From contig CAXXMV010000008.1 of assembly GCA_963662285.2 (NCBI GenBank), forward strand, positions 1,120,001-1,184,000: DNA of 64,000 bases, in the 5' to 3' direction. The notes beneath the pieces are model-generated. The model was given only the letters and a program-made list of their open reading frames with translations. It searched no databases and was not told the origin of the DNA. Both the position numbers and the translations under genes were made by a program. This stretch comes from a bacterium (lineage in GTDB: Bacteria > Hinthialibacterota > Hinthialibacteria > Hinthialibacterales > Hinthialibacteraceae). Position 1 is the first letter of the stretch, and every line of letters begins with the position of its first letter. Positions 17,685 through 47,820 of this stretch are shown here, in pieces.

Positions 17685-18734
17685 TTGAAAGGACCGGGGA
17701 TGTCTCATCTCACTAAACGAAAAGGCTCTTCATACTGGCATATTCGCTACACGCATCCCATAACAGGAAAAACGACTTTTAAGAGCACGAAATCAAAAGA
17801 ATATAGGCAGGCTTTGAGTCTGAAAAAAGAATTCGATAAAAAGATGGCGAAAGGGGCCATGGCGGAGGTAGTAGGAAGCAAAGGTACGCTTGCTGAACTC
17901 GCCGAGAAATATTGTGAGTGGGTGAAAGATAGACGATCACCGAAATGGTCGATGCAATTGGGAAGAATGATCAATAATGAGATTTTGCCATTTATCGGTA
18001 AAAATACCCGGATTACAAAAATCACGAAAAACAAACTCTATTCGTTTCAGACCTACTTGATCGACAGAAAACTTTCGAAACGTACCGTTAATCTGTACGT
18101 CGGAACCCTTCGCGCAATGTTGAGAAAAGTACCGGAATGGTATTCCACATTAAGAGATTGGAATCCTCCACGTATTGAGGAACTTCGTTTGGAAGTAAAA
18201 CCGCCCCGGTTCTTTTCGGAAGAAGAATGCGATCACCTGCTACATGTTGCGAAAGAATATAGCGAGCCCATTTATCTGACAGTAGCGTTTGCCCGGTACT
18301 GTGGTTTCCGCAAGAGCGAAATCATGAGGCTAAAATGGGAAGACATCGACCTGAAGGAGAATCGCATCATGGTTGATACAAGAAAGAACAAACACTTTCT
18401 TGGCGTTCCAATCCATCCAAAACTTGCTGAGATTCTGATGACGATTCCCAAAACTGAACGAGAAGGGCAAGTCATTAAAAAGAAAGGCGAGGGATTTCGC
18501 CTCGATATCCGTTACCCTTGGGAACAAGTTCGAAAAATCGCTGGCGAAAAGCATGGCGTTCGGCAGGATTTGGGATTACATGGACTCCGGCATTCTTTTG
18601 GCGCTCATCTCGCTCAAAAAGGAGTTGGGATTCACGCCCTTCGCGAATTAATGGGTCATAAAGATCTTCAGGTCACACAACGATACGCTCATCTCAATGA
18701 TGAACGGTTAAGAGAAGATATTGAAAAACTGTAA
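17685..18734 (+). CDS. Tyrosine recombinase/integrase
   Basis: Catalytic set GFRKSE (R), HGLRH, MGH, TQRY; N-terminal arm-binding-like KRKGSSYWHIRY. The true start may be ATG at 17700. Confidence 0.95.
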   Translation: MKGPGMSHLTKRKGSSYWHIRYTHPITGKTTFKSTKSKEYRQALSLKKEFDKKMAKGAMAEVVGSKGTLAELAEKYCEWVKDRRSPKWSMQLGRMINNEILPFIGKNTRITKITKNKLYSFQTYLIDRKLSKRTVNLYVGTLRAMLRKVPEWYSTLRDWNPPRIEELRLEVKPPRFFSEEECDHLLHVAKEYSEPIYLTVAFARYCGFRKSEIMRLKWEDIDLKENRIMVDTRKNKHFLGVPIHPKLAEILMTIPKTEREGQVIKKKGEGFRLDIRYPWEQVRKIAGEKHGVRQDLGLHGLRHSFGAHLAQKGVGIHALRELMGHKDLQVTQRYAHLNDERLREDIEKL

Positions 18735-30683: not shown

Positions 30684-33600
30684 ATGAGGATCAATATCAT
30701 GACCACCTCCGGTAGTGGAAAACGACTGCGACCGGTCATTCGAGTGTTTGTCAGTTCGACGTTCAGCGACATGAAGCACGAGCGGAACGCTTTGGAGGCC
30801 GATGCCTTTCCGAAACTGGAGCAGCTCTGTCAGCGTCATGGGTTTCAGTTCCAAGCCATCGATCTGCGCTGGGGCGTCTCGACTGAAGCTGGGCTGGATC
30901 ACCGAACGATGCAGATTTGCTACGAGGAATTGCGCCGGTCGCAAGAGATTTCCCCGGAACCAAATTTCCTTATCTTGCTGGGCAACCGCTATGGATGGCG
31001 GCCTTTGCCAGAAGCGATCTCACAGAAAGAATATGAAAATCTTCGCAATGCAGCAATGGAATGCGATAAAGACGGCAAGGCTATCATCAAAGGAATAGGT
31101 GACAAGTCAGCCGAACAGATACTCAAAGAATGGTATCGACTCGATGAAAATATTCTCCCCTCCGATCGAACACGGGATGATCCTGACTGCGCGCCACTGA
31201 ACTACATACTGCAATCACGTCTACAAGTTGTTGATGGGCATCTAAAGTATGGTCGTAGGAAGAAAGTCTCAGGCATGGGAGACGAAGACACGCCAGAATG
31301 GATTGCCGTCCAGAATGTTCTCTGGAATATGATCAACGCAGCATTTCCAGCTGATGCCCGTTTCAAAAACCGCTTCAAAAACATTGATGGGAACAAGCAT
31401 ATCCAGGATGTCGACAGTACACTAGACCCCAAGCGCACCGTACCACAGATCGTGCGTTTCCAGGGCTCCGCGACCGAGCAAGAGATATGGAGCGGCGCTC
31501 TTAGCGTCCCACATGCCGATCAACACGTCTTGGCGTTTTTCCGGGAGATCGAGAACCGCGCCGCCTTCTCCGATCCGAAGCAGATTGAGAACTTCGTTGA
31601 TGTGGACCCGTCCGGTACACTCCAGATTGAGCAGTTGAAGGCAGAACTTCGCCTGCGGTTGGGCAGTTCGAATCTTTTCCACAACGAGGCTCCCGTGAGG
31701 TTGGTGGAGGCTCAAGACAATCAGGGTGACCGAAGAGTTGATATCACGACGGATCACCTAGACCAGCTTTGCGCCAATGTGGTAAGCCGGCTGTCAGAGA
31801 GCATCCAGGGCCAGATCGATGAGTATTGGCACAATACCTCACCAGCTTCAATGAATCGCGCCGCTCGCGAACTAGAAATCGAACAGCGCGAATACGAACG
31901 GTTCGCCAAGGAGCGTGGCGGTGAAGAGTCGTTTGTTGGCCGACAAGTCGAGTTGCAGTCTATTCTCGACTACATGGGGAGCGATTCCTGTTGGCCATTG
32001 GTGATCCACGGCGCTTCCGGCTGCGGAAAGACCGCCTTGTTGGCGTGCGCATCTCAAGAAGTGGCCAAGACCCGAAAACGGATCGAACGCTTCATCGGCG
32101 TCGCGCCACGGTCGTCTGACCTCCGTTCGTTACTAAGCAGCCTCTGCCAGGAATTGCGGCAGCGGAACCCGCGCACAGACGTGCTTCCCACCGAGATCAA
32201 GGAGTTACGTGACGAATTCTCCCGGCATTTGCAGGTCGCCACACCGGAGCAACCACTGATCCTGTTTCTAGACGCCCTTGACCAACTTGCTGATGCCGAC
32301 AATGGCCGGCTGCTGCACTGGCTGCCGCTTGGCTCGTTGCCAGCCCATGTTAAGCTCGTTGTTTCCTGCTTATCCGACCGGGCCGATGGTGATCTCGCCG
32401 GGCAACCGTACGCCGAACTCAAGCACCGCCAAATCCCGACCGAGAATTTCATCAATCTGAACGTTCTCTCGGAAGCCGAAGCTCGCTTGTTACTTTTCGA
32501 CCGGTGGCTCCCTAATACGGGCCGCAAGGTCAGTGATGATCAGCGGGCACAAATCGAGCAACGCCTTGCATCTCCGACATGCCGCCAGCCAATCTTCCTG
32601 AAGATGCTTTTCGAGGAAGTCCGATTCTGGCATTCCTACGATCCAGCGCCGGTGCCGGGCGAGAGCGTCCCCGCGCTTCTTGGACAACTCTTCGACCGGC
32701 TCAGCCTTGAGACGAACCACGGTCCGCTGTTGGTGAATCGCGTGCTGGGTTATCTTTCTGCATCCCGGCATGGATTGGCGGAAAATGAGATTCTGGAGAT
32801 CCTGTTCGCCGACCCCGAGTACCGAGCCAAGCTCAACGAAGCCACCGAACAGACCCGGCAGGAGCTGCCGCCCAATGCCAAGCGCATTCCGATTACTCTG
32901 TGGTCCCGGCTCCGGTTTGATCTTGCCCCTTACCTCACCGAGCGGGCCGCACCCGGCGCCAATGTGCTGACTTTCTACCACCGACAAGTCGGTGAGGCCG
33001 CTCGTGGTAAATACATGAGTGGTGACAACGAACTTCGTTCCCATCGCGCTCTGGCCGGGTATTTCCACAAACAGCACAATTACCTAGAATCAATAATAGA
33101 ACAGCATGCGCATGCAAGCCACCCATCAACTATGTCACGCCAGGCAAATCTACGGAAGGTGGATGAGCTTCCTTGGCAACGGTTACAAGCCCAGCAGTGG
33201 GATAAATTAGGAAGACTCCTGACCGATGTGTCTTTCCTCGAAGCCAAGGTCGCGGCGGGGATGCTTCATTCTCTAATCGAGGATTACAACAGCGCGTTTA
33301 AAGCAAGTGGCAACACCAAAGTAAGCGAATGGAGTTCTGATCGTCGAAGTTTTGGCATGAGTTTCTTCCTGCGGGCACTGCGAAAGAACGCAGAATTTAT
33401 TTCCGATGTGCCCACAGCAACCCGAACCCAGCTAATCCTCACTGGACTGAACGAGGCCTTTGATCACAAACTCCTGGTGGGGAGATTTGCGGAAAAATCT
33501 CTGCTCGTGCCCTCGCGCGCCCCCGCAGAGATTGCTAATCCGCACTCCGAAGAAGTCGTCTCTGTAACAGCAAGTGGTGACTGCCAAAGAGTCGCAACCT

Positions 33601-35309
33601 GCGATCTTCGCGGGCAGGTTATCATCTGGGATGTCATGAAGCGACGCTGGTTAACGCGGTATACTGCAGTCAAAGGCAGAGCAGAGGTTGTCTGCTTCCT
33701 CGACCTTGGTGGTGTGCTTTTGGCTGCCGCATGTGAGGACGGTTCAATCTACATTGCCGAATCAAGCACCGGCGACCAGCGCGCAAGGCTGTGTAAACAC
33801 AAATCTCAACTCTTGGCTCTCACGAGCAATGGAACTTACTTCGCTTCCGGTGGTGTTGATGAAAGAGTCTTTCTTTGGGAAACCAGATCTTTGCGGTTCT
33901 TGACTGAAGTTGGTGAGTCCAAAGGCCGCGGTATGATTCAATCTTTGGCTTTCGGTGCCGGACATTATCTCTTGGTTGGCACCCACACAGGTCGAGTCGA
34001 GTGTTGGGATCTGAGCAGCCCTACCGCTCCGAAACTATGCTATCAGTTCAACTTGCCGACGCCATCGAATCGTTTGGGGCCGTCTAGCATTGAGCAAGTA
34101 GCTTTTGTTCCTCGGACACGCTATGCGTGTGTTTCTGACTGGGAACCGAAAATCACGATTTTCGATGCGATTTCGGGTCAGTCGCTTAATCAGGTCAGAC
34201 ATCCCGGCAGTTATGCACCCCGGTTTGCCCCGACACAGGACGGGAAGACGCTAGTCTGTTCACATGATAAAGGGTTAATGGCTTTTGCAGTTCCCAGCGG
34301 TCAACATCTGTGGAAGATTGACGCGGACATGTGGAGTATTGGGAGCCTCGTGCTGTTGGAGGAGGATCGCAGTTCGTTCACTGGACACTCGGATAGTTCA
34401 GTAGCCATCTGGGATCTTGCTGATAGAAAACGGATTTGGGCACAGCCCGGCGTCCGCAACAGCGCCATATCGGCAGCGGCAATAGATCCAAGTCGCGCAA
34501 TCTGTGTTTCCGGAGGTACCGGAGGCCAAATCAGCGCCGTTGATTTGGAAACAGAGAAAACTCTGTACCATGTAAAGACGGACATTGGTTATGTGTGCGC
34601 TTTGGATGTCTGCGCAGTAAACAACGTTTTTGCCGCATTGGGTTGGAGTCGCTACACCATTGTGGCGTCAACCACCACGGGCCACGAAACCATGCGGTTC
34701 CCGACTGCTGAATTTGGACGAATGGTTTGCTTAAATCCACAAGGTGATCGCCTTGCTATCGGGTGCGAGCAAGACCTAACGGTATTTGATCTAGCAAGCC
34801 AAACTTCATTATTCAGAACTAAAGATGCCTTAACGGCTTGGATCGTCTCTGGTCTGTTTTCGGATAATCCAGATTTTTTATATCTCGGCGATTCCTGGGG
34901 GATTTGCCACGAAATTCAGTTGTCAACTGGAGGTGTGCGGCATCTCAATCCCGGCAACAACCAGATTCGCGGTTGGTGTCAATTCCTAACTGTACTGGAA
35001 GCCCAGAAATGCTTCATTTCGGCTGCGGGTAGCCAATTGTTTGTATGGGATTTGCTGTCTGGCTGTGTCCAGCGTAAACTCATCGGGCACCGAAGCGATG
35101 TATGCACAGGTACCCTCTCAAAGGATGGAAAATGGCTGATAACTGGCGACGAGCATGGCAGGATCATCTTATGGGAGACTGCCTCTTGGAGAATTGTCGG
35201 CGGGGCATTGCTTCAAGCCCCAATCCGTGTGCTTACATTTGACCAGATTCGATCATGTCTGTGGGCCGTGGACGCCGCAAGAGGAATATATCAATTCGCT
35301 TTGCAGTGA
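30684..35309 (+). CDS. DUF4062(TIR-like)-STAND NTPase-WD40 NLR-like protein, copy 1 (intact)
   Basis: RVFVSSTFSDMKHER, IDLRWG, LGNRYGW; Walker A GASGCGKT, Walker B LFLDALD; C-terminal WD40 repeats. Confidence 0.9.
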   Translation: MRINIMTTSGSGKRLRPVIRVFVSSTFSDMKHERNALEADAFPKLEQLCQRHGFQFQAIDLRWGVSTEAGLDHRTMQICYEELRRSQEISPEPNFLILLGNRYGWRPLPEAISQKEYENLRNAAMECDKDGKAIIKGIGDKSAEQILKEWYRLDENILPSDRTRDDPDCAPLNYILQSRLQVVDGHLKYGRRKKVSGMGDEDTPEWIAVQNVLWNMINAAFPADARFKNRFKNIDGNKHIQDVDSTLDPKRTVPQIVRFQGSATEQEIWSGALSVPHADQHVLAFFREIENRAAFSDPKQIENFVDVDPSGTLQIEQLKAELRLRLGSSNLFHNEAPVRLVEAQDNQGDRRVDITTDHLDQLCANVVSRLSESIQGQIDEYWHNTSPASMNRAARELEIEQREYERFAKERGGEESFVGRQVELQSILDYMGSDSCWPLVIHGASGCGKTALLACASQEVAKTRKRIERFIGVAPRSSDLRSLLSSLCQELRQRNPRTDVLPTEIKELRDEFSRHLQVATPEQPLILFLDALDQLADADNGRLLHWLPLGSLPAHVKLVVSCLSDRADGDLAGQPYAELKHRQIPTENFINLNVLSEAEARLLLFDRWLPNTGRKVSDDQRAQIEQRLASPTCRQPIFLKMLFEEVRFWHSYDPAPVPGESVPALLGQLFDRLSLETNHGPLLVNRVLGYLSASRHGLAENEILEILFADPEYRAKLNEATEQTRQELPPNAKRIPITLWSRLRFDLAPYLTERAAPGANVLTFYHRQVGEAARGKYMSGDNELRSHRALAGYFHKQHNYLESIIEQHAHASHPSTMSRQANLRKVDELPWQRLQAQQWDKLGRLLTDVSFLEAKVAAGMLHSLIEDYNSAFKASGNTKVSEWSSDRRSFGMSFFLRALRKNAEFISDVPTATRTQLILTGLNEAFDHKLLVGRFAEKSLLVPSRAPAEIANPHSEEVVSVTASGDCQRVATCDLRGQVIIWDVMKRRWLTRYTAVKGRAEVVCFLDLGGVLLAAACEDGSIYIAESSTGDQRARLCKHKSQLLALTSNGTYFASGGVDERVFLWETRSLRFLTEVGESKGRGMIQSLAFGAGHYLLVGTHTGRVECWDLSSPTAPKLCYQFNLPTPSNRLGPSSIEQVAFVPRTRYACVSDWEPKITIFDAISGQSLNQVRHPGSYAPRFAPTQDGKTLVCSHDKGLMAFAVPSGQHLWKIDADMWSIGSLVLLEEDRSSFTGHSDSSVAIWDLADRKRIWAQPGVRNSAISAAAIDPSRAICVSGGTGGQISAVDLETEKTLYHVKTDIGYVCALDVCAVNNVFAALGWSRYTIVASTTTGHETMRFPTAEFGRMVCLNPQGDRLAIGCEQDLTVFDLASQTSLFRTKDALTAWIVSGLFSDNPDFLYLGDSWGICHEIQLSTGGVRHLNPGNNQIRGWCQFLTVLEAQKCFISAAGSQLFVWDLLSGCVQRKLIGHRSDVCTGTLSKDGKWLITGDEHGRIILWETASWRIVGGALLQAPIRVLTFDQIRSCLWAVDAARGIYQFALQ

Positions 35310-36195: not shown

Positions 36196-37767
36196 ATGCC
36201 AATGCGCATAGATTGGGAGAAGCCGATGCCGAAGGAGAGATTGTCCATGCGGAAAATCAAAGAGATACTACGATTAAAATGGGAGTGTGGTCTGAGTAAG
36301 AAGAAGATCGCTCAGAGTTGTGGCATGTCACGCAGCACTGTGGGGGATTATCTGATGCGAGCCGGAGCGGCAGGGCTATCCTGGCCGTTGCCGGAAGATC
36401 TGACTGAATCGGAATTGGAGAAGCGGCTCTTTTCCAGCCCCCCCGGACGTTCGCCCGTGCAACGCCCGTTACCCGATTGTGCGTTGATTCATAAAGAGAA
36501 TAAGAGGAAGGGCGTCACTCTGGCGCTGTTGTGGACGGAATATAAACAAGAACATCCGGATGGGTATCAATACACGCAATTTTGTGAGCATTACCGCCGC
36601 TGGAGGGATCGTCTCGATACCTGTCTGCGCCAAGAGCATAAGGCGGGGGAAAAATTGTTTGTGGATTACTGTGGACAGACCATCCCAGTGATCGACCGAA
36701 CGACAGGCGAAGAGAGAGAAGCGCAGATTTTCGTGGCGGCGTTGGGGGCCTCGAATTACACCTATGCGGAAGCGACGTGGACGCAGCAGCTCCCCGACTG
36801 GATTGGAGCGCATGCGCGGGCGTTGGAATATATCAACGGTTGTCCGGAGGTTCTGGTCCCCGACAATCTCCGAAGCGGCGTCAGCCAGGCCTGCCGGTAC
36901 GAACCCGACATCAACCCCACCTATCAAGCGTTTGCGGCCCATTATGGGATCGCGGTGATCCCGGCCCGTGTGCGAAAAGCCCGTGACAAAGCCAAGGTCG
37001 AAAAGAGCGTTCAACTGGTCGAGAACTGGATACTGGCCCGCTTGAGGAATCAAACATTCTTCAGTTTATCCGAACTCAATCAGGCCATTCGTGAGCATTT
37101 GCAGGCTCTCAACGACCATCCGTTTCAGAAATTGAACGAGACCCGCCGGTCCTTGTATGAATCCGTGGATCGTCCGGCGCTGCGTCCGCTCCCGGTCACG
37201 CCGTTCGAGTATGCGGACTGGAAGCAAGTGACGGTGGGGAACGATTACCATGTGGAAGTGGAGCGGCATTATTACAGCGTTCCGTCCACGCACGTCCGCC
37301 GGAAAGTCGAAATCCGCTATACCGCCCGGATCGTGGAGATTTATTGGCGGGGGGAACGGGTCGCCAGTCATATCCGCAACCATCGGCAAGGCGGTTGCAC
37401 CACGGTTCGCGAACATATGCCCAAAGAGCATCGCGAGGTTCTCGATTGGACGCCGGAGCGCCTGCAGGACGAGGCCGCGGGCATTGGCGCATTCACGGGA
37501 CGCCTGATCGAACGGGTGTTTGAGTGCAGTCGGCATCCGCTGCAAGGCGCACGAACGAGTTTGGGGATTCTGCGTCTCGGCCAGTCGTTTGGCCCGGACC
37601 GGTTGGAGCGCGCCTGTGAGCGTGCGTTGTTGATTCAAGCCCTCACCTACAAGAGCATTCGCTCGATTCTCAAGAAAGGATTGGACCGTCTTCCTCCACC
37701 CGGGCCGCCGCCTCCGGCGCTCACCATTCAGCATGACAACATACGCGGCGCTCAGTATTTCCACTAA
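36196..37767 (+). CDS. istA: IS21 transposase IstA
   Basis: HTH N-terminus; FVDY, PDN, DKAKVE (DDE); YSVP. Confidence 0.95.
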   Translation: MPMRIDWEKPMPKERLSMRKIKEILRLKWECGLSKKKIAQSCGMSRSTVGDYLMRAGAAGLSWPLPEDLTESELEKRLFSSPPGRSPVQRPLPDCALIHKENKRKGVTLALLWTEYKQEHPDGYQYTQFCEHYRRWRDRLDTCLRQEHKAGEKLFVDYCGQTIPVIDRTTGEEREAQIFVAALGASNYTYAEATWTQQLPDWIGAHARALEYINGCPEVLVPDNLRSGVSQACRYEPDINPTYQAFAAHYGIAVIPARVRKARDKAKVEKSVQLVENWILARLRNQTFFSLSELNQAIREHLQALNDHPFQKLNETRRSLYESVDRPALRPLPVTPFEYADWKQVTVGNDYHVEVERHYYSVPSTHVRRKVEIRYTARIVEIYWRGERVASHIRNHRQGGCTTVREHMPKEHREVLDWTPERLQDEAAGIGAFTGRLIERVFECSRHPLQGARTSLGILRLGQSFGPDRLERACERALLIQALTYKSIRSILKKGLDRLPPPGPPPPALTIQHDNIRGAQYFH

Positions 37768-37813
37768 AGCCAGCAGCGATGGCTGCTTTTAAAACCTGGA
37801 AGGAGACGAATTC

Positions 37814-38629
37814 ATGCTTACACACCCTACTCTGGAAAAAATGAAAGCCATGCGGCTTTACGGCATGGCCAAGGCCTTTGAAGAACAATTACAGATGGCA
37901 GATATTGGCGAGCTCCGGTTTGAAGACCGGCTCGGACTGTTGATGGATCGCGAGGAAAGTGAAAAAAACAACCGCTTGCTGCAATCGCGATTGCGCAAAG
38001 CGAAACTGGCGCAGTCGGCCTGTGTGGAAAACCTCGATCTGGCGGCGCGGCGCGGATTGGATCGAACGCTCATCGCGAAACTCATCGCGTGCGATTGGAT
38101 TGGGGAGCGCTTGAACGTGATCGCAACGGGTCCCACCGGTACGGGGAAAAGTTATTTATCTTGTGCTCTGGGCCAAAAAGCCTGCCGGGAAAGATACACC
38201 GTGGAATACCATCGCGCTCCCCGGCTCTTTCCAGAACTTCACTTGGCGAAAGGCGATGGCCGTTACGAGGCGATTCTGCGCCGCCTGGCCAAAACCGATT
38301 TAGTCATCCTCGATGATTGGGGACTCTATGTCATGAACGATGAAGCGCGCCGCGATTGTTTGGAACTCCTCGAAGATCGTTGCGGCAAACGTTCGACTCT
38401 CGTTACCAGTCAAATTCCGATCCAGCACTGGCACGAAACCATTGGCGATCCGACTCTGGCCGATGCCATTCTGGACCGCCTCGTACATAACGCATACAAG
38501 ATCGAACTGAAAGGAGAATCCATGCGTAAACGGAACAAGAAACTGGAAACAGAAAACAGCGAAGATCATGAAATCAATGAACTCGAACCAAAATCAAGGA
38601 GCAATAAGGCTCAGAAGGGGTCAAAATAA
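37814..38629 (+). CDS. istB: IS21 helper ATPase IstB
   Basis: GPTGTGKS, ILDDWG, DAILDRLVH. Confidence 0.95.
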   Translation: MLTHPTLEKMKAMRLYGMAKAFEEQLQMADIGELRFEDRLGLLMDREESEKNNRLLQSRLRKAKLAQSACVENLDLAARRGLDRTLIAKLIACDWIGERLNVIATGPTGTGKSYLSCALGQKACRERYTVEYHRAPRLFPELHLAKGDGRYEAILRRLAKTDLVILDDWGLYVMNDEARRDCLELLEDRCGKRSTLVTSQIPIQHWHETIGDPTLADAILDRLVHNAYKIELKGESMRKRNKKLETENSEDHEINELEPKSRSNKAQKGSK

Positions 38630-41600
38630 AATCAACAAAAGGGGGGTAACTCCATTCGGCCTACGGCCTCACTCCGTTACCCCCCTTTTAACGCGAAGAA
38701 TGATGAGAGTATGATGAAAATACGACCCAACGCTGCTGGGATATCAAAGGGTGTCGGAAGGCTCCGAATTAGGGTGCCGATTTACTCCGAAATGCCCTGC
38801 CGGTTTAATCCCGGATTCCCCTGTCGTTTTAACCGAAATCCGCAATCATCAAAGGAATAGGTGACAAGTCAGCCGAACAGATACTCAAAGAATGGTATCG
38901 ACTCGATGAAAATATTCTCCCCTCCGATCGAACACGGGATGATCCTGACTGCGCGCCACTGAACTACATACTGCAATCACGTCTACAAGTTGTTGATGGG
39001 CATCTAAAGTATGGTCGTAGGAAGAAAGTCTCAGGCATGGGAGACGAAGACACGCCAGAATGGATTGCCGTCCAGAATGTTCTCTGGAATATGATCAACG
39101 CAGCATTTCCAGCTGATGCCCGTTTCAAAAACCGCTTCAAAAACATTGATGGGAACAAGCATATCCAGGATGTCGACAGTACACTAGACCCCAAGCGCAC
39201 CGTACCACAGATCGTGCGTTTCCAGGGCTCCGCGACCGAGCAAGAGATATGGAGCGGCGCTCTTAGCGTCCCACATGCCGATCAACACGTCTTGGCGTTT
39301 TTCCGGGAGATCGAGAACCGCGTCGCCTTCTCCGATCCGAAGCAGATTGAGAACTTCGTTGATGTGGACCCGTCCGGTACACTCCAGATTGAGCAGTTGA
39401 AGGCAGAACTTCGCCTGCGGTTGGGCAGTTCGAATCTTTTCCCCAACAAGGTCCCCGTCCGGTTAGTGAAGGCTCAAGATAATCAGGGCAGCCTAACCTT
39501 TGATATCACGACGGATCACCTAGCCCCGCTTTGCGCCGATGTGGTAACGCGGATGACGGAGATCATCCAAGGTCAGATCGACGAGTATTGGCGCAAGACC
39601 GAGCCAGCCTCCATGGACCGTGCTGTGCGTGATTTGGAAATCGAACAGAACGAATACGAACGGTTCGCCAAGGAGCGTGGCGGTGAGGAATCGTTCGTTG
39701 GCCGAAGTGACCTTCTGGAAAGTATTCGATCTTATATAAAAAACGATTCGCCTTATCCACTCGTGATTTACGGTGATTCCGGTTGCGGCAAGACCGCCCT
39801 CTTAGCGAGAGCCTACCAGGAGATCCCTTCGAAGGAGAAGCCAATCATACGTTTCATTGGAACGACGCCTCGTTCTTCCGATGTCCGATCTTTGCTAAAA
39901 AGCCTCTGTCAGGAACTCCGCGAGCGACATCCCATCACCGAAACACTTTCCTCAGATGTTCGTGAATTAATGCAAGAATTCCGTCAACATCTCGATATGG
40001 CAACATCCGAGAAGCCTGTCATTTTATTCCTCGATGCACTCGATCAACTTTCCGAAGCGGACAATGGTCGTCAATTATCTTGGATTCCGTTTGGCCAATT
40101 ACCGAGTCATGTAAAGATCGTGGTATCGTGTTTCTTTAATGAAGACGAAAACGATCCTGTCAGCCAACCGTACGCCGAACTCAAGCGCCGCCAAATCCCG
40201 ACCGAGAATTTCATCAACCTCGACGTTCTCTCAGAGGCCGAAGCTCACTTGCTACTTTTCGACCGGTGGCTCCCCAAGGCGGGTCGCAAGGTCAGTGACG
40301 ATCAGCGGACGCGAATCGAGCAACGCCTTGCATCTCCGGCCTGCCGCCAGCCAATCTTCCTGAAACTGCTTTTCGAGGAAGTCCAACTCTGGCATTCCTA
40401 CGATCCGGCGCCGGTGCCGGGTGAGAGCGTCTCCACGCTTCTCGGACAACTCTTCGACCGGCTAAGCCTACCGACAAACCACGGTCCGCTGTTGGTGAAT
40501 CGCGTGCTGGGTTATCTGTCCGCATCCCGGCATGGATTGGCGGAAAACGAGATTCTGGAGATCCTCTTCGCTGACCCTGAGTACAAAGAGAAACTCAAGG
40601 AGGACAACAAGCGAAATCGCCATGAGCTGCCGCCCAACGCAACTCGCATCCCCATTGCGCTGTGGTCTCGGCTCCGGTTTGACCTTGCGCCATACCTTAC
40701 TGAGCGGGCTGCACCCGGTGCCAATGTGCTGACGTTCTATCATCGGCAGCTGGCAGAATGGGCATGCTGCTCTTCTTCAGAGGTGTTGACTCAGGATTGG
40801 CGTCCGCATCAACGACTGGCTGAATACTATGAGAAGCAGGTCTTTTTCGACAACTATGTCGAAGAACAGCGACTGTGTTCAGATGATGTAGTTGCAATTC
40901 CTCATCTTGCGAATGTTCGCAAAGTAACGGAATTGCCTTGGCAGAGACTGAAAGAAGCCCAACTTACGAGTCAATGGAATGAGGTAGGGGCCTTATTTAC
41001 AGACTTGATGTTTTTTGAGGCGAAATCTGGTGCTGGGCTCATCTTTGAGCTTACAGATGAACTCAGAACGGCTGCGGACACCATGCCACAACATCATCCG
41101 CAGAAGCATCTCATCAAAATCCTCGATAAAGCGCTCCGTCGGGATATTCACTTTATTGCGCGACATCGGAACGATTACCCGCAGGCGTTGTTCCAATGCC
41201 TTTGGAATTCGTGCGGGTGTCCGTACACCGAGAAGACTCGTGCTAAGGATCTAAAACACACTAGTATCGAGGTAGAGGAGCATTTGTCGTCTGCTTTGCA
41301 TGCTTTATTGGATTCATGGCGACTCCTCAAAACGGCAACCACTATCTGGTGTGAGGCTCTTCAGTCACCTGTGATCCCACCGACTCACTTGCCAGACCTA
41401 ATCTTGGAGGGGCACACCGGCATAATCATGAAGCCGGTTTTCAGCCCGGATTGCCTTAGAATTGCGACTTCTGCCCCTTTGGAAGGCAAAATTCGTATCT
41501 GGGATGTTTCTAGCGGGGTCTGCCTCCGCACGCTTGTGACTGGGGGTACGAATGGTCCTGCAGTCTGGTCTCCCGACAATCGCCACATTGCAGTAACAAC

Positions 41601-44198
41601 ATCCCAAGACAAAATGATCATCTGGGACTGGTATCTTGACAGAATTGAGAATGTTGTCGACCTACCGAGTTCTGAATGTGATGCGGTTGGAATTGGGATC
41701 GCTGTCTCACCGGATGGCAAGTATGTTGCCGTCTCGCATCGTTATGGGCTTGTTGTCATCTGCGACTTCCACTCTGGATCTGTGTTATCCCAAGTTCATT
41801 TTTCCGAGAGCTCCGTGTTTCTAATGGAGTTTTCCAGTGACGGGTCTTCGCTGGCTGTTGCCTCGTATGCCTCGTATGCCTCGTATGACTCCATGGTTCG
41901 ATATTTGGAAGTACCTTCTCTTGCTGAACAGCGGTCGATCCGGATCAACAACCTGTCATCGTGCGCGATGCTGCCTGAAGGTAATGTGCTTGCTGTTTGT
42001 GAAAAAGTGGTTGGGGAAGTTGGCTCACAAGTGATACTCTATGACGGTAGAACAGGGGTGATACGTGCAGTCGTGAACGACGGTACGTCAGCACAGTACG
42101 CAGAGCCACAATTTGTCGCATGCAGCGCTAATGGACAGCATGCTGCATTCATTCACAACCGAGGTGTGACTGTGATTGACCTAGATCGGGGCACGCGAGT
42201 CACGGCACCGATTCGCTTCGGCGCAACCGGATTCCCAAGCCTCTCAGCGGATGGCCGGCTCCTCGCGCAAACAGATTTGGACCAAGTAATGATTTGGCGC
42301 CTGGACTCATTAGAACCATCGATGATCCCAAGGCTCGAATGGGAGGTCAGAGAGGTTGCCCCTAGTTCGTGTGGCCAGTTCGTCGCGGTGGCTACTGAGT
42401 CAGATTTCAAAGGTTCCCTCAATGAATCCCCATTCGTCATACTGGAAACGGCTTCGGGTACCCTCATCAGTGAATGGCAACATCCCGGATCACGGCCAAT
42501 AGCATTTGATTGCATTGCCTGGTTTCATCACTCTGCGAAGGTTGCGTTTGCGAGTCACGGAGGAGGCCCAGTGTGGCTTTGGGGGCCTGATTGGACGAAC
42601 AACCTCTGCAGATTTGACCTAAGGGCTGCTTGCTTGAAGATATTGGTCTCTCCGAACGACGCTTGGATCGGTTGCACTTGCAAGGATGGGATGATCCAAC
42701 TAATCCAAGTTTGTCGCGCCGGGATGGCTGGTGTACGAACGCTTTTCACAAGTGAGCGCGGTGATCTTGAGGGCGGAGCAGATACGCCCCTAGCCTTCTC
42801 GTCGGACAGCATGCTGCTTGCGGCGTCCATCGACCATGCTGTTTACGTTAATGATTGGTTGGTGGAGGCAGACGAAAACCCAATTTACATATACCAAATT
42901 TTCAGTCCTGACGCGATAGTCATCCTAAAAGGTCACGCTGCCGCCGCCACGTGCCTAGCCTTCAACTCGGACGGTAGCCTTCTCGCATCAGCGGCACGGA
43001 ACAAAGAGGTTAAAATCTGGGATGTGGCAACTGGACGAGAAATTCACACTCTAGCGAATCATGCTGGCTCGGTCGATGCAGTGGCTTTCACCGACAACGG
43101 AAGACAAGTTGTCAGCGTGGATTCTCGACAACGCACTTACCTTTGGAATGTAGATAATGGCGAGTTAGTCCAACAATGGGCTGGGGCGTTTGACGCGGTG
43201 GAATTCGCAGTTTACCGCAGCCAGCCTCTTGGCGACAAACCAAGCCTCCTAGGGTACCACTTGGGATGTGAATTCCAAGTGGTTAATCCAGAGAATCTGG
43301 CGGTGAATGCAGCGCTGCCGACGCATTTCAACGACGCTTTGTTGTTTCTTCCTCAGACCCAGAGATTCATCCGATGGAATGCCGGCTTGTTAGAACTGTA
43401 TCGAGTTGGGGAGACTAAAAACCACACCAAGCCATCGGAATCCCCTTCCATATTCCGACCGGAAGTTCCTATTGACAAATTTCAACAGAGATGTCGGCTT
43501 TGTGGGCCGCACAACGGTAATTGCAGAATTTGCGGTGGGAAGAAATACATTGAGGCCCGTCACGATGTATCCCACTTGCGCTTCGAACTCCTAAGAAAAA
43601 AATGTCCTGCCTGTGATGGAACCGGGAAATGCTACATCTGTCATGCACGAAAGGCTGTCTCCGGGAAAGCTCCGCTTGTTGCTAATCCGACTGCTTTGCG
43701 CGGCCACCTGCGGCACCTACTCACCGACCAGCACTGGCAAAAGCATCTACAGACACAAAACGAATCAATCCGGGATTTACTGAATATCATAGGAACGGCA
43801 AAGAATCGGCACGAAGCCGCAGAATTACTCTCTCGATTGGATCTCCTGCAACTGTGGCTCTTGGGTCTTATAGGAGGTGCTCGAAGGACCGCGGGCTGGG
43901 ATCTCTACGATTTGCTAGGACGGCTCCGTCGACTCCAGGTACCGTTTCTTACTGTCCAAGAGGCGATGTTCTCCCTTGAAGAACTCGGGGTACTTCAACG
44001 TGAAATACGATGGCGCAATCGCGAGCCATACGAAGTCATGATCGTCAAACCCGAGAGTCACATCCGTTTTCTGTGCAATTTTCTCGCGGACATTCGGATA
44101 GACCTGAGTGAACCACCTAAGCCCAGTAGGCCCGTCGCATTGGATGACGGAGAAAAAACTGACGAGCAAGATTCCATTTGGTAATCGCGAGACTTGGA

Positions 44199-44458
44199 AT
44201 GAAGGAGCGTGAATTCACATTTCGTGTTTTCGTCAGTTTGATCCCACGATTGCGGGACGATCTGAAGACCGAGCCAGATGCATTGCAGCGGGACGTGTTC
44301 CCTCGGCTGCGCGAGTACTGCCAGAAACACGGATGCCGGTTCCAGGCGATTGACCTGCGTTTCCGACATCGTACCGACCACGCAGTGTGTCGGGACTCCG
44401 CCGGACATAGGGCGTCAGCCAACGTTACGACTGGGTGTCCGAACCGCGCCACTTCCGC
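44199..44458 (+). pseudogene. Degenerate DUF4062 stub 2
   Basis: FRVFVS..DLKTEPDALQRDVFPRLREYCQKHGCRFQAIDLR, eroded middle, remnant CAACGTTACGACTGGGTG (QRYDWV). Confidence 0.75.
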
Positions 44459-44827
44459 GGAACAACCATTCAGATTGTGAACATAAGGATTTTTACCTAT
44501 GAATGATTCCAAACAACAGGCTCGCCTTCGCCCCGTCATTCGAGTGTTTGTCAGTTCAACGTTCAGCGACATGAAGCATGAGCGGAACGCTTTGGAGGCC
44601 GATGCCTTTCCGAAACTGGAGCAGCATTGTCAGCGCCAAGGGTTTCAGTTCCAGGCGATCGATCTGCGCTGGGGCGTCTCGACTGAAGTCGGCCTGGATC
44701 ACCGGACGATGCGGATCTGTTTTCCGTTTAGGGCAAATGTCCGGTAGTTAAAATTAGAAGGTGTCCCTTCCGAAAAACCATCCGATAACGGATGGAGAAG
44801 AAAAAAAACGGAAAGGAAGAGACACCC

Positions 44828-45700
44828 ATGATAAGTCCTACCCCAAACTCTCGTGAGAGTCAACAGGCTCGGCAGGAAAGTAAAACGCTAGCGCAGCAAC
44901 TGATCAATCGGGCGGTGGAAGGAACGGGGATGAGTCCCTGGGAAGCGGAAATCCTGGTGGACGTGGTTCAGGAGGTGTATTTTACCGAACCGGGAAATGC
45001 GCCCCTTCGTTCGGGTCAAATGCGCTACGACTGTGTGGCGGCGAACGAAGGAGTGGGCAAAGCGATCCGGGCGTGCCGGATGGTGAGCGTGGTCTTAACC
45101 CTGGTGGAAAAAGACGATTCGCAAGTAGTCGCCCAATTCAGCGTACAAGCCCTGCGCCAGGCGAGAATCCTGCGCCTTACGGAAGAAGCCTTCGAACAAG
45201 GAGGCGTGCTGACCCAGGAGGATTTGGCGCTGATTCTCAACAGCGACGTGCGCACCATTCGCCGGGATATTAGGGAACTGCGGGAGCGGAAAGGCATTCA
45301 CGCGCCCACCCGGGGCCAGGTGAAAGACATTGGCCCCGGCGTCACCCACAAAGAAGCGGCGCTCCAATTGTGGCTGGAAGGCCGCGAGCCGGTGGAGGTG
45401 GCCCGCCGCCTGAATCACACCCTGCACGCCGTGGAACGCTACATCCAGCATTTCAGCCGGGCGGCGTTTCTCCACCGCAAGGGATTCGCACCGCTGCAGA
45501 TTGCGCTGACGGTCGGTATTTCTTCGGCGGCGGCGCAGTTGTATCGGGACTTTTACGAACGATGCAAACGCAAGCGGGCGTATCAAGCGCGGTTGCGGGA
45601 GTTGGAGTGTATCGGCCTTCAGCACTATCAAGCGGAGGACGAGAAAAAAGGGGGACCTTTGCCCGGAAGGAATACGAAAAGCGGAAGGAGGCGGCCATGA
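44828..45700 (+). CDS. DUF1670-like protein A
   Basis: RLTEEAFEQGGVLTQEDLA, HTH SDVRTIRRDI, PTRGQVKDIGPGVTHK, NHTLHAVERY. ATG at 44828 preferred (track start 44792). Confidence 0.75.
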   Translation: MISPTPNSRESQQARQESKTLAQQLINRAVEGTGMSPWEAEILVDVVQEVYFTEPGNAPLRSGQMRYDCVAANEGVGKAIRACRMVSVVLTLVEKDDSQVVAQFSVQALRQARILRLTEEAFEQGGVLTQEDLALILNSDVRTIRRDIRELRERKGIHAPTRGQVKDIGPGVTHKEAALQLWLEGREPVEVARRLNHTLHAVERYIQHFSRAAFLHRKGFAPLQIALTVGISSAAAQLYRDFYERCKRKRAYQARLRELECIGLQHYQAEDEKKGGPLPGRNTKSGRRRP

Positions 45701-46506
45701 AAACGCATCTCGATCACAACGCCGCCGCCTACGGCCCGGTGCAGTTCAAAACGTTCGCCGGGGCGTTGAACGCCTTCTTTCACCAGGAATGCCCTCAACT
45801 GGGCGGTCAGCGCACCCGACAGGTGCTGGTGCAGAGCGTCGTGGAGATGGTCGACCGATTCTATCCCGAAACCACGCACCTGCGTCCCGGTCAGATCGTT
45901 TGGACCACGGTGGATAAAAACGAGAAGGGCTCCTACGGCAAGAAGATTACTCAGAGCGAACTCACCAGCGTGGTGTTGGATCTGGTGCGGCCCGAAGACG
46001 CGGTGGAACGGGCCCGGGGCAAGCGCTTGCGGGACATAAAACGGGAAGCGGCGGCGCGCTTGTTCACGCAGGCGTACGAGCAGAACGGCTGCATGACCAA
46101 TGCCGAGGTGGCCATTCTCCTGAAAATCTCAGCGGCGACCGTGGGCAAATACATTCAGCAATGGGAAACGGAACACGACCGGTTGTTGCCCCGCCGGGGA
46201 ACGATTCACGATCTCGGTCCCACCCTGACCCACAAGAAAGTCATCATTCAAAAACTCTTTTTGGAAGGCAAGTCGGTGGGACAGGTGCAGAGGGAAACCT
46301 ATCATAGTCCGGAAGCCATTCATCGCTATATCCAGACATTTCGACAAGTCCTCTTATGTCGCCAGAAAGGATTCTCGAATGAAGAAATCTCCTTCGCCCT
46401 CAAAATCAGCAAGCGGTTGGCAGTCGAGTACCAATCTCTGATGGATGAGATGATCCATGAATATCAGTCTCTGGAATATCTCCTGAACCTTGATATTCCT
46501 GCGTAA
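45697..46506 (+). CDS. DUF1670-like protein B, paralogue of A
   Basis: ATGA overlap with A and a GGAGG RBS; RLFTQAYEQNGCMTNAEVA, PRRGTIHDLGPTLTHK, YHSPEAIHRY. Confidence 0.78.
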   Translation: MKTHLDHNAAAYGPVQFKTFAGALNAFFHQECPQLGGQRTRQVLVQSVVEMVDRFYPETTHLRPGQIVWTTVDKNEKGSYGKKITQSELTSVVLDLVRPEDAVERARGKRLRDIKREAAARLFTQAYEQNGCMTNAEVAILLKISAATVGKYIQQWETEHDRLLPRRGTIHDLGPTLTHKKVIIQKLFLEGKSVGQVQRETYHSPEAIHRYIQTFRQVLLCRQKGFSNEEISFALKISKRLAVEYQSLMDEMIHEYQSLEYLLNLDIPA

Positions 46507-47820
46507 TCTTGATATTCAATTGATGATTCGATGGAAGAGGACACCTTGCACGCACCGGACATAAACCCTTATTTGACAAACTGCGGCGAGCGCAGGAGAT
46601 CTCTCCCAAGCCCAATTTTCTCATCCTGCTGGGCAACCGCTATGGCTGGCGGCCCCTGCCTGAAGAGATTTCCGTGGAGGAGTTCCGCACACTGGAGCAT
46701 GCCGCCGCGCAGATACCCGGCGGTGCCGACAAGTCAGCGGTCTCGGTTCTGTGGGAATGGTATCGTGAGGATACGAACGCCGTTCCGCCCGTCTATCCTA
46801 CCGCTCAGTCGATTGAGTAACGTAGTGACGCCCGTCCGGCAATGATTTACGCCTGCGGCTTCCGGACAAGCACCCGGAAGCCATCACCAGCCGTCCCTTG
46901 CTCCTCTATGGGGTTGCCAAACAGATCCATCACAGCGGTCAATCCACACTGACAATCACAAGTTCTCATAGACAGAGCGATATTATTCAGAAAATTTGGA
47001 GATCCTTGGCGGCTTTTCTTGCTTATCTGAAACGGAATGCGGAGCAGTTGGGGTGGGATGCTGATTCCGGTGAAAACGAACGGGGATTCCGGGAAGGAAA
47101 CGATCGCTTGTGTACGCGCCGCTCAGAAATTGACAACTGCCTGATGATGTTCTCAATTGGACAGAGCATGAGGTGGCGCGCTGGGCCAATGATGTCGTCG
47201 GAGGATGGCCGGGCACTTGGTTCTGGATACGAATGTTCTCACAAGGGCTTCCACCGGATCTCAAATGCAAGCGTTGTGACTACGAAGAAATAGCAAACTC
47301 CAATACCTTGCCACCTCCAGCGCAGTGTCCGCAATGTGGCTTCGCCACCAACGAAAACGAGGAACGAGAGTTTTGTGCAATTCTATTTTCTACGGGCCAT
47401 CTATTTGACTTCTTAATACGCGCGAGGTTTTGCACTCGTGAGCGTCTCGGTGGTATGTTACGATACTATTACCGCAACGCAGCTTAATGCACTTTACTTC
47501 AGGTAAACCATTCAAAAAGTATATCCCAAACCTCAGATTGTTGACTTTTCACGACTGGAACATAACAAAACTGTACAAGACTGAATCACAAACGATCGAG
47601 ATTCCTGCTAAATGCTGACCTCAAGTTACTATTCTTCAAGAACTTGATTGTCATTCGAGTTTTTTGCCCCACGGGCGGGAGAGTCCCAGCGATTCCGCCA
47701 TCCGCCAAACGGCCGCCGCCGCTCCGTATTCGCGGGAGCGCTCGATGCGGAATCCGGCCGGTACGGTTGAGGGGCATCCCTGCTTGATAAACTCGCGCAG
47801 AGATACCAGTTGGGCGTGAG

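Follow-up and report, generated by a model that had tools for sequence, protein, structure and literature searches.

A candidate insertion sequence of an uncatalogued family encoding two DUF1670 paralogues

Introduction

By what means is a DNA element inserted whose only two genes code for proteins that resemble no known transposase? This question is raised by a locus in a 64,000-nucleotide stretch of a bacterial genome of the Hinthialibacterota (GenBank assembly GCA_963662285.2, contig CAXXMV010000008.1, positions 1,120,001 to 1,184,000 of the forward strand), which was analyzed as a whole and is referred to as the window, with positions counted from its first letter. Within the window, a unit of 1849 bp (44724..46572, + strand) interrupts an NLR-like gene and contains two open reading frames (ORFs), A and B, and no others. 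To our knowledge, every well-studied prokaryotic insertion sequence (IS) relies on one of a handful of enzyme classes. An earlier note on this DNA, made from the sequence alone, had assigned the unit to a divergent heteromeric tyrosine recombinase, while regarding it as a minimal mobile element.

In the following we describe why this unit is best explained as an autonomous insertion sequence of an uncatalogued family ('DUF1670 IS'), in which A and B carry out insertion, an explanation that we consider moderately probable. Here, uncatalogued was judged with the NCBIfam IS transposase models as a proxy for the catalogue of named IS. We focus primarily on the ends of the element, its copies in other genomes and its target, and then turn to the gene pair and to the alternative explanations of how the element might be moved.

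An insertion with defined ends in an NLR-like gene

The window holds three paralogues of a gene of the DUF4062-NACHT/AAA_16-WD40 (NLR-like) type, of which copy 1 (30684-35309) is intact and copy 3 carries the insert. The DNA of copy 3 tracks that of copy 1 from 44499 up to 44719, and the homology is back at 46579. At the protein level, copy 3 reads ..GLDHRTMRICF, followed by the insert and then by DKLRRAQEISPKPNFLILLGNRYGWRPLPEE, and the corresponding stretch of copy 1 runs unbroken through the insertion point (..GLDHRTMQICYEELRRSQEISPEPNFLILLGNRYGWRPLPEA.. / ..RTMQICYEELRRSQEISP..). The 5' part of the host gene (44499..44721, +) encodes the DUF4062 N-terminus (DUF4062 match, E 5.2e-05), and it is the DUF4062 part that is split by the insert. 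The 3' remnant (46575..46820, +) is additionally truncated by a stop codon at 46818-20, ~82 codons after the insert. Both the protein and the DNA comparison with copy 1 thus confirm, at codon level, the earlier proposal that a gene has been split at this point.

The limits of the element were set by comparison with the conserved termini of related elements, namely 28 left and 34 right junctions elsewhere. An outer, terminal inverted repeat is formed by a left arm at 44728..44745 (+, TTAGGGCAAATGTCCGGT) and a right arm at 46554..46572 (-, with the sequence TAAGGGTTTATGTCCGGT at 46554-46571), the latter ending in ..CCCTTAT according to the junction census. Its pattern has two matches in the 64 kb, both at the element ends, compared with a mean of 0.00 in 100 shuffles, and the same TTAGGG..TGTCC(GG) end is also found in relatives. 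Further inside lies an inner repeat, with a left copy at 44758..44772 (+, AAGGTGTCCCTTCC) and a right copy at 46533..46547 (AAGGTGTCCTCTTCC on the minus strand), the latter identified by the repeat scan and by the subterminal motif of the relatives. Taken alone, the inner repeat is not above chance, as at least two matches (two mismatches allowed) occur in 47 of 100 shuffles, and its credibility comes only from distant relatives, in which this subterminal motif is found again. Of the two sets of inverted repeats that had been claimed for the unit, the outer one is therefore confirmed as unique in the window and conserved in relatives, and the inner one is present and recurrent but within chance when considered by itself; the repeat scan and the relatives together support a bipartite arrangement.

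Across subfamilies, the left end follows the consensus [ACT]C[GT][AT]TTAGG[GT]CAnnTGnCC and the right end ..GGnCAnnTGCCCTTAT, with the terminus ..CCCTTAT followed by TT. The element differs in base composition from its surroundings (GC 0.60-0.61 vs 0.50-0.54 in the flanks). The core TTAGGG of the left end (window 44727-44733 and relatives) equals the vertebrate telomere repeat hexamer, which is probably a coincidence.

One subfamily, from Pontiella/Kiritimatiellales (L012 4006-4075; L015, L017, L023, L045), has a left end that opens with a 34-bp palindrome composed of the left end, a loop and the inverted left end. The 34 nt that follow, taken from the opposite strand, spell out right end, TT, left end, and are nearly identical to the true right end. 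From its sequence, this arrangement resembles a relic of a circle junction, or of a head-to-tail junction, that has been built into the end. L012 is the one copy present in the cultured Pontiella sulfatireligans F21.

Copies, hosts and mobility

The strongest indications of movement come from genomes in which related elements occur more than once. In the gammaproteobacterial metagenome-assembled genome (MAG) G041, which has long contigs, four copies of ~1,890 bp (1,883-1,897) are 99.0-99.6% identical and lie in four different flanks. A further copy is degenerate, with 88.7% identity over 762 bp, and two left ends occur as solo remnants. In G044, a short-read Victivallales MAG, many contigs start or stop within the last ~98 bases of the element, and these contig ends add at least three left and at least four right junctions. 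The end motif is confined to the four copies and the two remnants in G041, and its exact form to the element's own two ends in the window genome; in neither genome did the end-motif search reveal a longer 'master' element with the same ends.

The two solo left-end fragments of G041 are 50 and 86 bp long (L109, G041:C9:14713-14762; L110, G041:C43:31525-31610) and may be deletion remnants or excision scars. L109 is located inside an apparent IS4/IS5-type transposase gene (..YRCRWRVELFFKWIKQHLRIK..).

Relatives are widely distributed. When species-representative genomes were scanned with an alignment, 62 loci emerged, where an earlier single-protein scan of genome contigs had found none. Their hosts belong to the Nitrospirota, Myxococcota, Gammaproteobacteria, Kiritimatiellota, Victivallales/Lentisphaerota, Verrucomicrobiota, Chlamydiota, Clostridia, cyanobacteria and Planctomycetota, and include one Methanosarcinales archaeon. 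In 18 of the 62 loci the element alone makes up a contig of 1.7-2.6 kb. Furthermore, 827 relatives of ORF B were found at E <= 0.001, and the longest contig is at most 2.6 kb in 102 of the 120 clusters listed; this is only suggestive, because the contigs of that collection are short in general. The distribution is patchy: within the phylum of the window, the element is present in two of 35 genomes, the window genome included, and three of 41 genomes of relatives were positive, one of them below the cut-off. No relatives were found in the collections of plasmids, phages and IMG/VR viral contigs.

In three sequencing runs from marine sediment and a cold spring (X1, X3 and X4), contigs cover parts of 44825-46562 with few differences, and none of them bridges the junctions of the window. 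One X1 and one X4 contig lose the match at 44721, which suggests close relatives in other flanks.

Judged by these genome comparisons, the element is mobile. The earlier view of the unit as a minimal mobile element is supported by multi-copy relatives that share its ends in different flanks, and the check that had been suggested, a search for other copies with the same ends, showed that homologous pairs elsewhere carry these ends and are multi-copy (G041, G044). The window copy itself, intact, richer in GC than its surroundings and single, looks like a recent arrival.

The TT target and its duplication

The dinucleotide TT flanks the window copy on the left (44722..44723) and on the right (46573..46574). 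In a census that did not require any flanking bases, 26 of 28 distinct left junctions have TT as their immediate outer neighbor; the exceptions are the solo remnants L109 and L110. On the right side it is found at 33 of 34 distinct junctions, with TA at L030 as the exception; two of these 34 are internal to the left end of the Pontiella subfamily. A target of the IS608 type, TTAC, was considered, as it is common at left junctions; it was rejected because bases 3 and 4 vary (TTAC, TTCC, TTTC), and only TT is common to the right side.

How many of these T residues belonged to the site before insertion was addressed by joining the flanks in silico with zero, one or two T, which was possible for 14 elements, the flanks being too short in six more. 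At L011, the join with two T restores an ORF of 491+373 amino acids (aa), and the other joins leave 113 and 78 aa on the right side. At L024, the same join restores 144+501 aa, with the shorter side reduced to 46 and 10 aa in the other joins. The window copy matches its paralogue (..ICF DKLRRAQEI.. vs ..ICY EELRRSQEI..) only with the two-T join. Nine other joins were intergenic or uninformative.

Uninterrupted homologues add to this picture. A repeat of ~1 kb is present in at least four copies in G041, one of which is cut by a DUF1670 element (L010) ~110 bp from the repeat end. The three uninterrupted copies read GCCGAC-TT-AGGTTG, and the filled site at L010 reads CCTTAT-TT-AGGTTG. Likewise, a homologue of the right flank of L021 in G090 (72% identical) is uninterrupted and reads ..gaag-TT-TGATTTGCC. 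Taken together, the two ORF joins, the window paralogue and the two uninterrupted homologues show that the site had one TT before insertion and has two afterwards. On these comparisons, the TT on both sides would result from a 2-bp duplication of the target or from a 2-bp crossover core.

The gene pair and its expression signals

ORF B (45697..46506, +; P0002, 269 aa) starts with an ATG that overlaps the TGA of ORF A (ATGA). For ORF A (44828..45700, +), the start was placed by homology in the leader alignment, and ATG 44828 is probably the homologous start; an in-frame ATG at 44792 gives a 302-aa form (P0001). Both proteins pass the gathering cut-off of PF07900 (25 bits; model of 220 positions), ORF A with E 3.6e-58 and 197 bits over model positions 21-219 and ORF B with E 4.8e-57 and 193.3 bits over positions 9-220. 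Aligned over 206 residues, the two proteins share 31% identity (E 2e-27), and their profiles match with a probability of 99.9%. Two translationally coupled DUF1670 paralogues, recognized as the sole content of the insert before any database was searched, are hence confirmed by the ORFs, by PF07900 and by the ATGA overlap. The order A then B is kept in all 37 loci with near-complete A and B, and 25 of the 37 show an ATGA or GTGA overlap of 4 nt.

A second link between the two genes may operate at the ribosome. A conserved A-run lies ~54 nt 5' of the ORF B start, and in 18 of the 25 overlapping loci it includes the heptamer A_AAA_AA[AG] in frame; from there, no stop codon interrupts the -1 frame, which is that of B, up to the ORF B ATG. 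The remaining seven comprise six with A_AAA_G, the window among them, and one with A_AAG_G. In the window, the candidate -1 frameshift site is the A6G5 run at 45644..45654 (+), which in the frame of ORF A reads GAG AAA AAA GGG (45641-52). AAA is kept at the slip site even by GC-rich elements that favor AAG elsewhere (3 AAA vs 22 AAG in L026; 8 vs 21 in L009). From this pattern, an A-B fusion product is probably made via -1 ribosomal frameshifting.

In L011 and L013 (~4975), two of the four G041 copies, one extra C located 25 nt before the ORF B start creates a 579-aa A-B ORF; it may reflect natural variation or a long-read indel error.

A fused form also exists in archaea. A 3.19-kb contig of a Methanosarcinales MAG (L068 1-3188) contains one 1012-aa ORF with three DUF1670 stretches and no other gene, bounded by inverted repeats (AACCGTAWATGTCC..) that have the ATGTCC core of the element. 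By sequence, this contig is an archaeal fused version of the element.

Structure prediction lends weak support to a complex of A and B, which, like the fused forms, would fit modules acting jointly. The predicted pair reached a score of 0.56 (median of three runs), with 0.00 for the best of three controls, at least 48% of contacts in common between runs and a partner pLDDT of at least 72. Of 80 solved complexes, 58 attained the mark for such scores, as did two of 110 mismatched pairs; scores of up to 0.60 that reached the mark came from only seven of the 80 solved complexes and from both mismatches, and these counts calibrate the A-B score only roughly, as our own alignments were used for it.

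The left end of the element appears to double as a leader for ORF A. The left inner repeat forms the 5' arm of a potential stem, whose 3' arm (44815..44826, +) is an inverted copy of the inner repeat and abuts ATG 44828; the stretches 44760-44771 and 44815-44826 are 92% complementary. When 13 elements are compared, 90.6% of the cells of the 9-bp stem are paired vs 35-52% when the partner is slid, seven of the nine pairs show compensatory changes, and the covariation score was reached by none of 500 shuffles. The window leader folds at -26.9 kcal/mol (z = -4.64). The same leader/inner-repeat motif is also found near the right end. The stem would be either an RNA hairpin that masks the ribosome site or an inverted pair of binding sites for the element proteins. 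A promoter scan of the left end of the element revealed no sigma-70-like promoter.

Predicted structures and evidence against a catalytic role

AlphaFold2 models of A and B (mean pLDDT 74.8 and 76.1, respectively) share the same plan, consisting of an N-terminal domain with two to three helices and one long beta hairpin, followed by three helix-turn-helix (HTH) units. The linker between HTH 1 and HTH 2 (..LPRRGTIHDLGPTLTHKK..) is highly conserved and modeled with low confidence. Across 31 A and 31 B sequences, both paralogues keep K, G, GQ, G, R, Q..G, R-G, D, G-P, H, H, Y and F without change; these include R167, D172, H179, H203 and Y211 of B, which correspond to R174, D179, H186, H209 and Y217 of A. 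A conserved box, ..H(S/T)xxA(I/V)xRYIxxF, coincides in the models with the third (recognition) helix of the second HTH. It resembles the ..TVxRWxxRY.. recognition helix of transposase-type HTH domains, and its reading as a recognition helix fits the weak Pfam matches of A and B to HTH_23 and HTH_28.

Searches for an enzymatic relative gave little beyond such HTH similarities. Foldseek against the PDB returned no match for A or B at E <= 0.001, the top matches (E 0.11-0.5) being DtxR/MntR, SelB winged helices, Mga and Pax5. The best sequence match in the PDB had an E of 0.21, PHROGs and PADLOC gave weak HTH-level matches only, and the ESM Atlas yielded DUF1670 clusters only. Pfam assigned neither protein to a Phage_integrase, Resolvase, Y1_Tnp, Rep or DDE family. 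A Resolvase match was likewise lacking in NCBIfam, and a serine-recombinase (Resolvase) fold was absent from the Foldseek matches. For HUH enzymes, the missing Y1_Tnp/Rep families are accompanied by terminal inverted repeats and by TT on both sides of the element. The observation, already made from the sequence, that the insert shows no DDE, HUH or serine-recombinase motif is in this way borne out by Pfam, NCBIfam and Foldseek. As far as sequence and model comparisons reach, the chemistry of A and B would not be that of a recognizable DDE, HUH, serine- or tyrosine-recombinase fold.

Several observations weigh against an autonomous element with A and B as its enzymes, and they concern the proteins, their expression, the target and the window copy. 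Pfam, NCBIfam, AlphaFold2 and Foldseek revealed neither a catalytic fold nor a catalytic motif in either protein, and their role as enzymes is reached only by exclusion. The models themselves are of moderate confidence and come from shallow alignments (25 rows for B, 20 for A). The residues invariant across the paralogues are mostly located in the linker and the second HTH and may only bind DNA. An invariant Tyr80 (SYGK) and a near-invariant Asp95 are confined to ORF B, with no counterpart in A, and the SYGK motif is missing, by eye, from the archaeal modules of L068. Concerning expression, the slippery site of the window has the weaker A_AAA_G form (GAG AAA AAA GGG), the Lys-Lys-Gly peptide could alone explain part of the conservation of the A-run, and a pair of inverted sites for protein binding, instead of an RNA structure, could account for the leader 'stem'.

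With respect to the target, the flank join was ambiguous at L013, and at L010 the best join has one T (183+500 aa, minus strand). The right flank of L010 (5891-6893) is a separate repeat, the ~1-kb repeat described above, and its three other copies (L106, L107, L108) continue differently, which makes it probable that the flanks of L010 do not represent one original site; the missing left part of the repeat was found in the G041 assembly only in the three uninterrupted copies. A complete empty site with both flanks was not found when relatives of G041, G042 and G044 were searched for insertion-spanning DNA. A match in G076 to the left flank of L012 ends 29 nt short of the junction and then diverges. 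In the Logan contigs of four runs, the sole joint across the insert (X2, 44716 to 46591) has sides that are separated by 23 other letters and carry 13-15 mismatches each, and is the paralogue rather than an empty site; no circle junction was seen in the same contigs. Finally, the window genome has a single copy (one DNA place with two DUF1670 matches), so that the window copy may or may not be active.

Alternative explanations

The alternative that best withstands these data takes the DUF1670 proteins as factors for end recognition and synapsis only, with a host or trans-acting enzyme that breaks and joins the DNA. It agrees with the prediction of A and B as HTH arrays without a catalytic fold, and with an archaeal long form that adds just a third DUF1670 module. 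A weak search for longer or fused relatives of 472-2000 aa found none at E <= 0.001, and the lack of a catalytic-domain fusion among such proteins is weak evidence in the same direction. What speaks against it is the range of hosts, as a unit of 1.85-1.9 kb is found in Gammaproteobacteria, Kiritimatiellota, Victivallales, Chlamydiae, Clostridia, cyanobacteria and Methanosarcinales; because these hosts are very distant from one another, the helper enzyme would need to be nearly universal. Moreover, no other element with the same ends was found in G041 or the window genome. We regard a helper enzyme as unlikely, and we infer instead, by exclusion and from sequence, that the DUF1670 proteins themselves catalyze insertion.

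A known fold might also have diverged so far that models from shallow alignments missed it, for example an RNase-H-like DDE domain in an outlier of an IS630/Tc1-mariner-like family. This would account for a 2-bp duplication at a fixed dinucleotide, for the succession of paired-like HTH, basic linker and HTH, for weak N-terminal HTH matches to IS630 (E 0.01) and IS21 (E 0.0014), and for the presence of Pax5 at rank 10 of the Foldseek matches (E 0.24). Nevertheless, the NCBIfam matches cover the HTH region only and stay at 15.3 bits for IS630 (cut-off 100) and 18.2 bits for IS21 (cut-off 160). These best scores are far below the cut-offs, and no catalogued transposase model is thereby matched, in line with the earlier impression that the element is no standard IS. 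In addition, only two long beta strands are predicted per protein, no DDE family of Pfam is found, no acidic triad is kept in both paralogues, and the target is TT, not TA. A hidden fold of this kind thus appears quite improbable.

The recombinase favored by the earlier note fares worse. In that explanation, A and B form a divergent heteromeric tyrosine recombinase, and the H..A..RY box provides the catalytic His, Arg and Tyr. Both paralogues indeed keep R, H, H and Y, as well as D and G-P, without exception, and a 2-bp repeat at a fixed dinucleotide would also be possible for a conservative recombinase. Tyrosine recombinases have a HxxR...Y spacing of ~30 residues and overlaps of 6-8 bp. By comparison, the R..Y span in A and B is ~45 residues, R and Y are adjacent in the box, and the repeat is 2 bp. 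Neither Pfam, with no match to Phage_integrase, nor hhalign, nor Foldseek, with no recombinase among the 50 matches listed, gave a signal.

For the hhalign comparison, an integrase within the window was available. An ORF at 17685-18734 is taken as a tyrosine integrase because of its integrase box. The ORF B profile aligned with it (17685-18731) at a probability of 0.23% and an E of 0.26, with the catalytic box outside the aligned stretch. The proposed likeness of the C-termini of A and B to this integrase box is not supported by the alignment, and their own box is predicted to sit in an HTH recognition helix. As far as predicted structure tells, the fold is purely HTH without catalytic geometry, the outcome that had been named in advance as incompatible with a tyrosine recombinase, which we now consider very improbable.

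Least credible of all is a non-mobile, two-gene regulator cassette inside a decayed gene, which would suit the single copy in the window genome and the annotation of relatives as transcriptional regulators, and is contradicted by a genome in which four copies with an identity of at least 99% lie in different flanks, by conserved termini, by TT at both junctions, by interrupted ORFs and by element-length contigs.

A possible mechanism and a tentative new class

If the element is an autonomous DUF1670 IS, as we prefer, insertion may proceed as follows. A and B would act together as a heteromer, probably also as an A-B frameshift fusion. Judging from their predicted HTH units, they would bind the repeats, several of these units recognizing the bipartite ends (outer TTAGGGxxxxTGTCC, inner GGTGTCC), and would thereby bring the two ends together. 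The element would then be joined into TT, leaving TT on both sides by a 2-bp duplication or a 2-bp crossover core. Expression would be kept low by leader structure, translational coupling and frameshifting; the stem in which the left inner repeat pairs with the bases just before ORF A probably blocks access to the ribosome site or provides operator half-sites.

A further step, which we take only tentatively and hold at somewhat below even chances, is to regard the DUF1670 A/B pair (one chain in archaea) as a new class of transposase, made of HTH modules and a small N-terminal domain. Its fold would be unrelated to the DDE, DEDD, HUH, serine, tyrosine and Cas1 enzymes, it would insert into TT with a 2-bp duplication, and it would have spread over many bacterial phyla and into the Methanosarcinales. 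The active site would consist of the Arg-Gly, Asp, His, His and Tyr that do not vary in the linker and the second HTH, and a tyrosine nucleophile in a new fold would belong to this same tentative class.

The neighborhood of the interrupted gene

The interrupted gene is part of a tandem array of DUF4062/NACHT(AAA_16)/WD40 paralogues (30684-35309, 39037-44184 and 44178-44480). For copy 2 (1715 aa), DUF4062 is not among the best 25 of 42 Pfam families matched. A degenerate DUF4062-like fragment (..FRVFVS..QAIDLRF..) lies directly 5' of copy 3. Between copies 1 and 2, a complete IS21-family pair is present (window 36196-38629), with rve and Mu-transpos_C_2 domains in IstA and PF01695 in IstB (E 4.9e-72). 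Together with the DUF1670 element, this pair means that the NLR array has been struck by at least two different mobile elements.

Novelty and significance

The literature searched contains no mention of DUF1670, PF07900 or IPR012872, although supplementary tables could still hold one, and a listing of papers on new IS and transposase families includes none on this family. Among 120 listed clusters, the source names of ORF B relatives are 'DUF1670 domain-containing', 'hypothetical' and 'transcriptional regulator', and never transposase. What appears to be new here, from sequence and model comparisons, is an insertion sequence whose proteins fit no known transposase class.

If A and B constitute a new enzyme that breaks and joins DNA, the repertoire of transposition chemistry would be widened, and a tool for 2-bp-specific integration may result. 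If a universal host enzyme is recruited instead, this would be a new strategy for an insertion sequence. Hundreds of genes annotated as DUF1670 'regulators' in genomes and metagenomes probably belong to transposons. DUF1670 elements break assemblies and inactivate genes, in the window an NLR-like gene of the defense type. With 1.85 kb, two ORFs and defined ends, the system is small and directly testable.

Comparison with known systems

A and B are full-length members of PF07900 (DUF1670), a family without assigned function. HUH elements (IS200/IS605, IS91) have subterminal hairpins, and neither terminal inverted repeats nor target duplication. Among heteromeric tyrosine-recombinase systems, Tn554 with TnpA/B, the RIT elements and the XerC/D pair were compared; here too, paralogous proteins are encoded side by side in a mobile element. 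Unlike these, the DUF1670 element shows no tyrosine-recombinase signal in sequence or fold and has a 2-bp repeat, and in contrast to heteromeric tyrosine-recombinase elements it inserts at many sites with only TT in common.

The IS607 family uses a serine-recombinase transposase, and its ends and target share a dinucleotide, with a 2-bp crossover and little other specificity. The ends and target of the DUF1670 element also share a dinucleotide, consistent with a 2-bp crossover, and beyond this its target is little restricted, whereas it has no Resolvase domain, clear terminal inverted repeats and two DUF1670 proteins. With IS630/Tc1-mariner elements it has in common a fixed dinucleotide that is duplicated to 2 bp, the succession of HTH, basic linker and HTH, and a weak HTH similarity; it differs in its target, TT instead of TA, in that no DDE/DDD domain was detected, and in having two proteins rather than one.

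The organization of the genes is reminiscent of IS3 and IS1, which have two overlapping ORFs and produce an OrfAB fusion by -1 frameshifting at A_AAA_AAG or A6C, and whose target duplications are 3-5 bp (IS3) and 8-9 bp (IS1). The DUF1670 element departs from both in that its ORF B is a paralogue of A with no rve/DDE domain, and in its 2-bp duplication at TT. Like them, it is small and bounded by terminal inverted repeats. The gene for an HTH protein comes first and a second ORF follows in the -1 frame, with the heptamer A_AAA_AA[AG] in frame shortly ahead of the overlap (18/25 loci), and a leader structure would mask the start.

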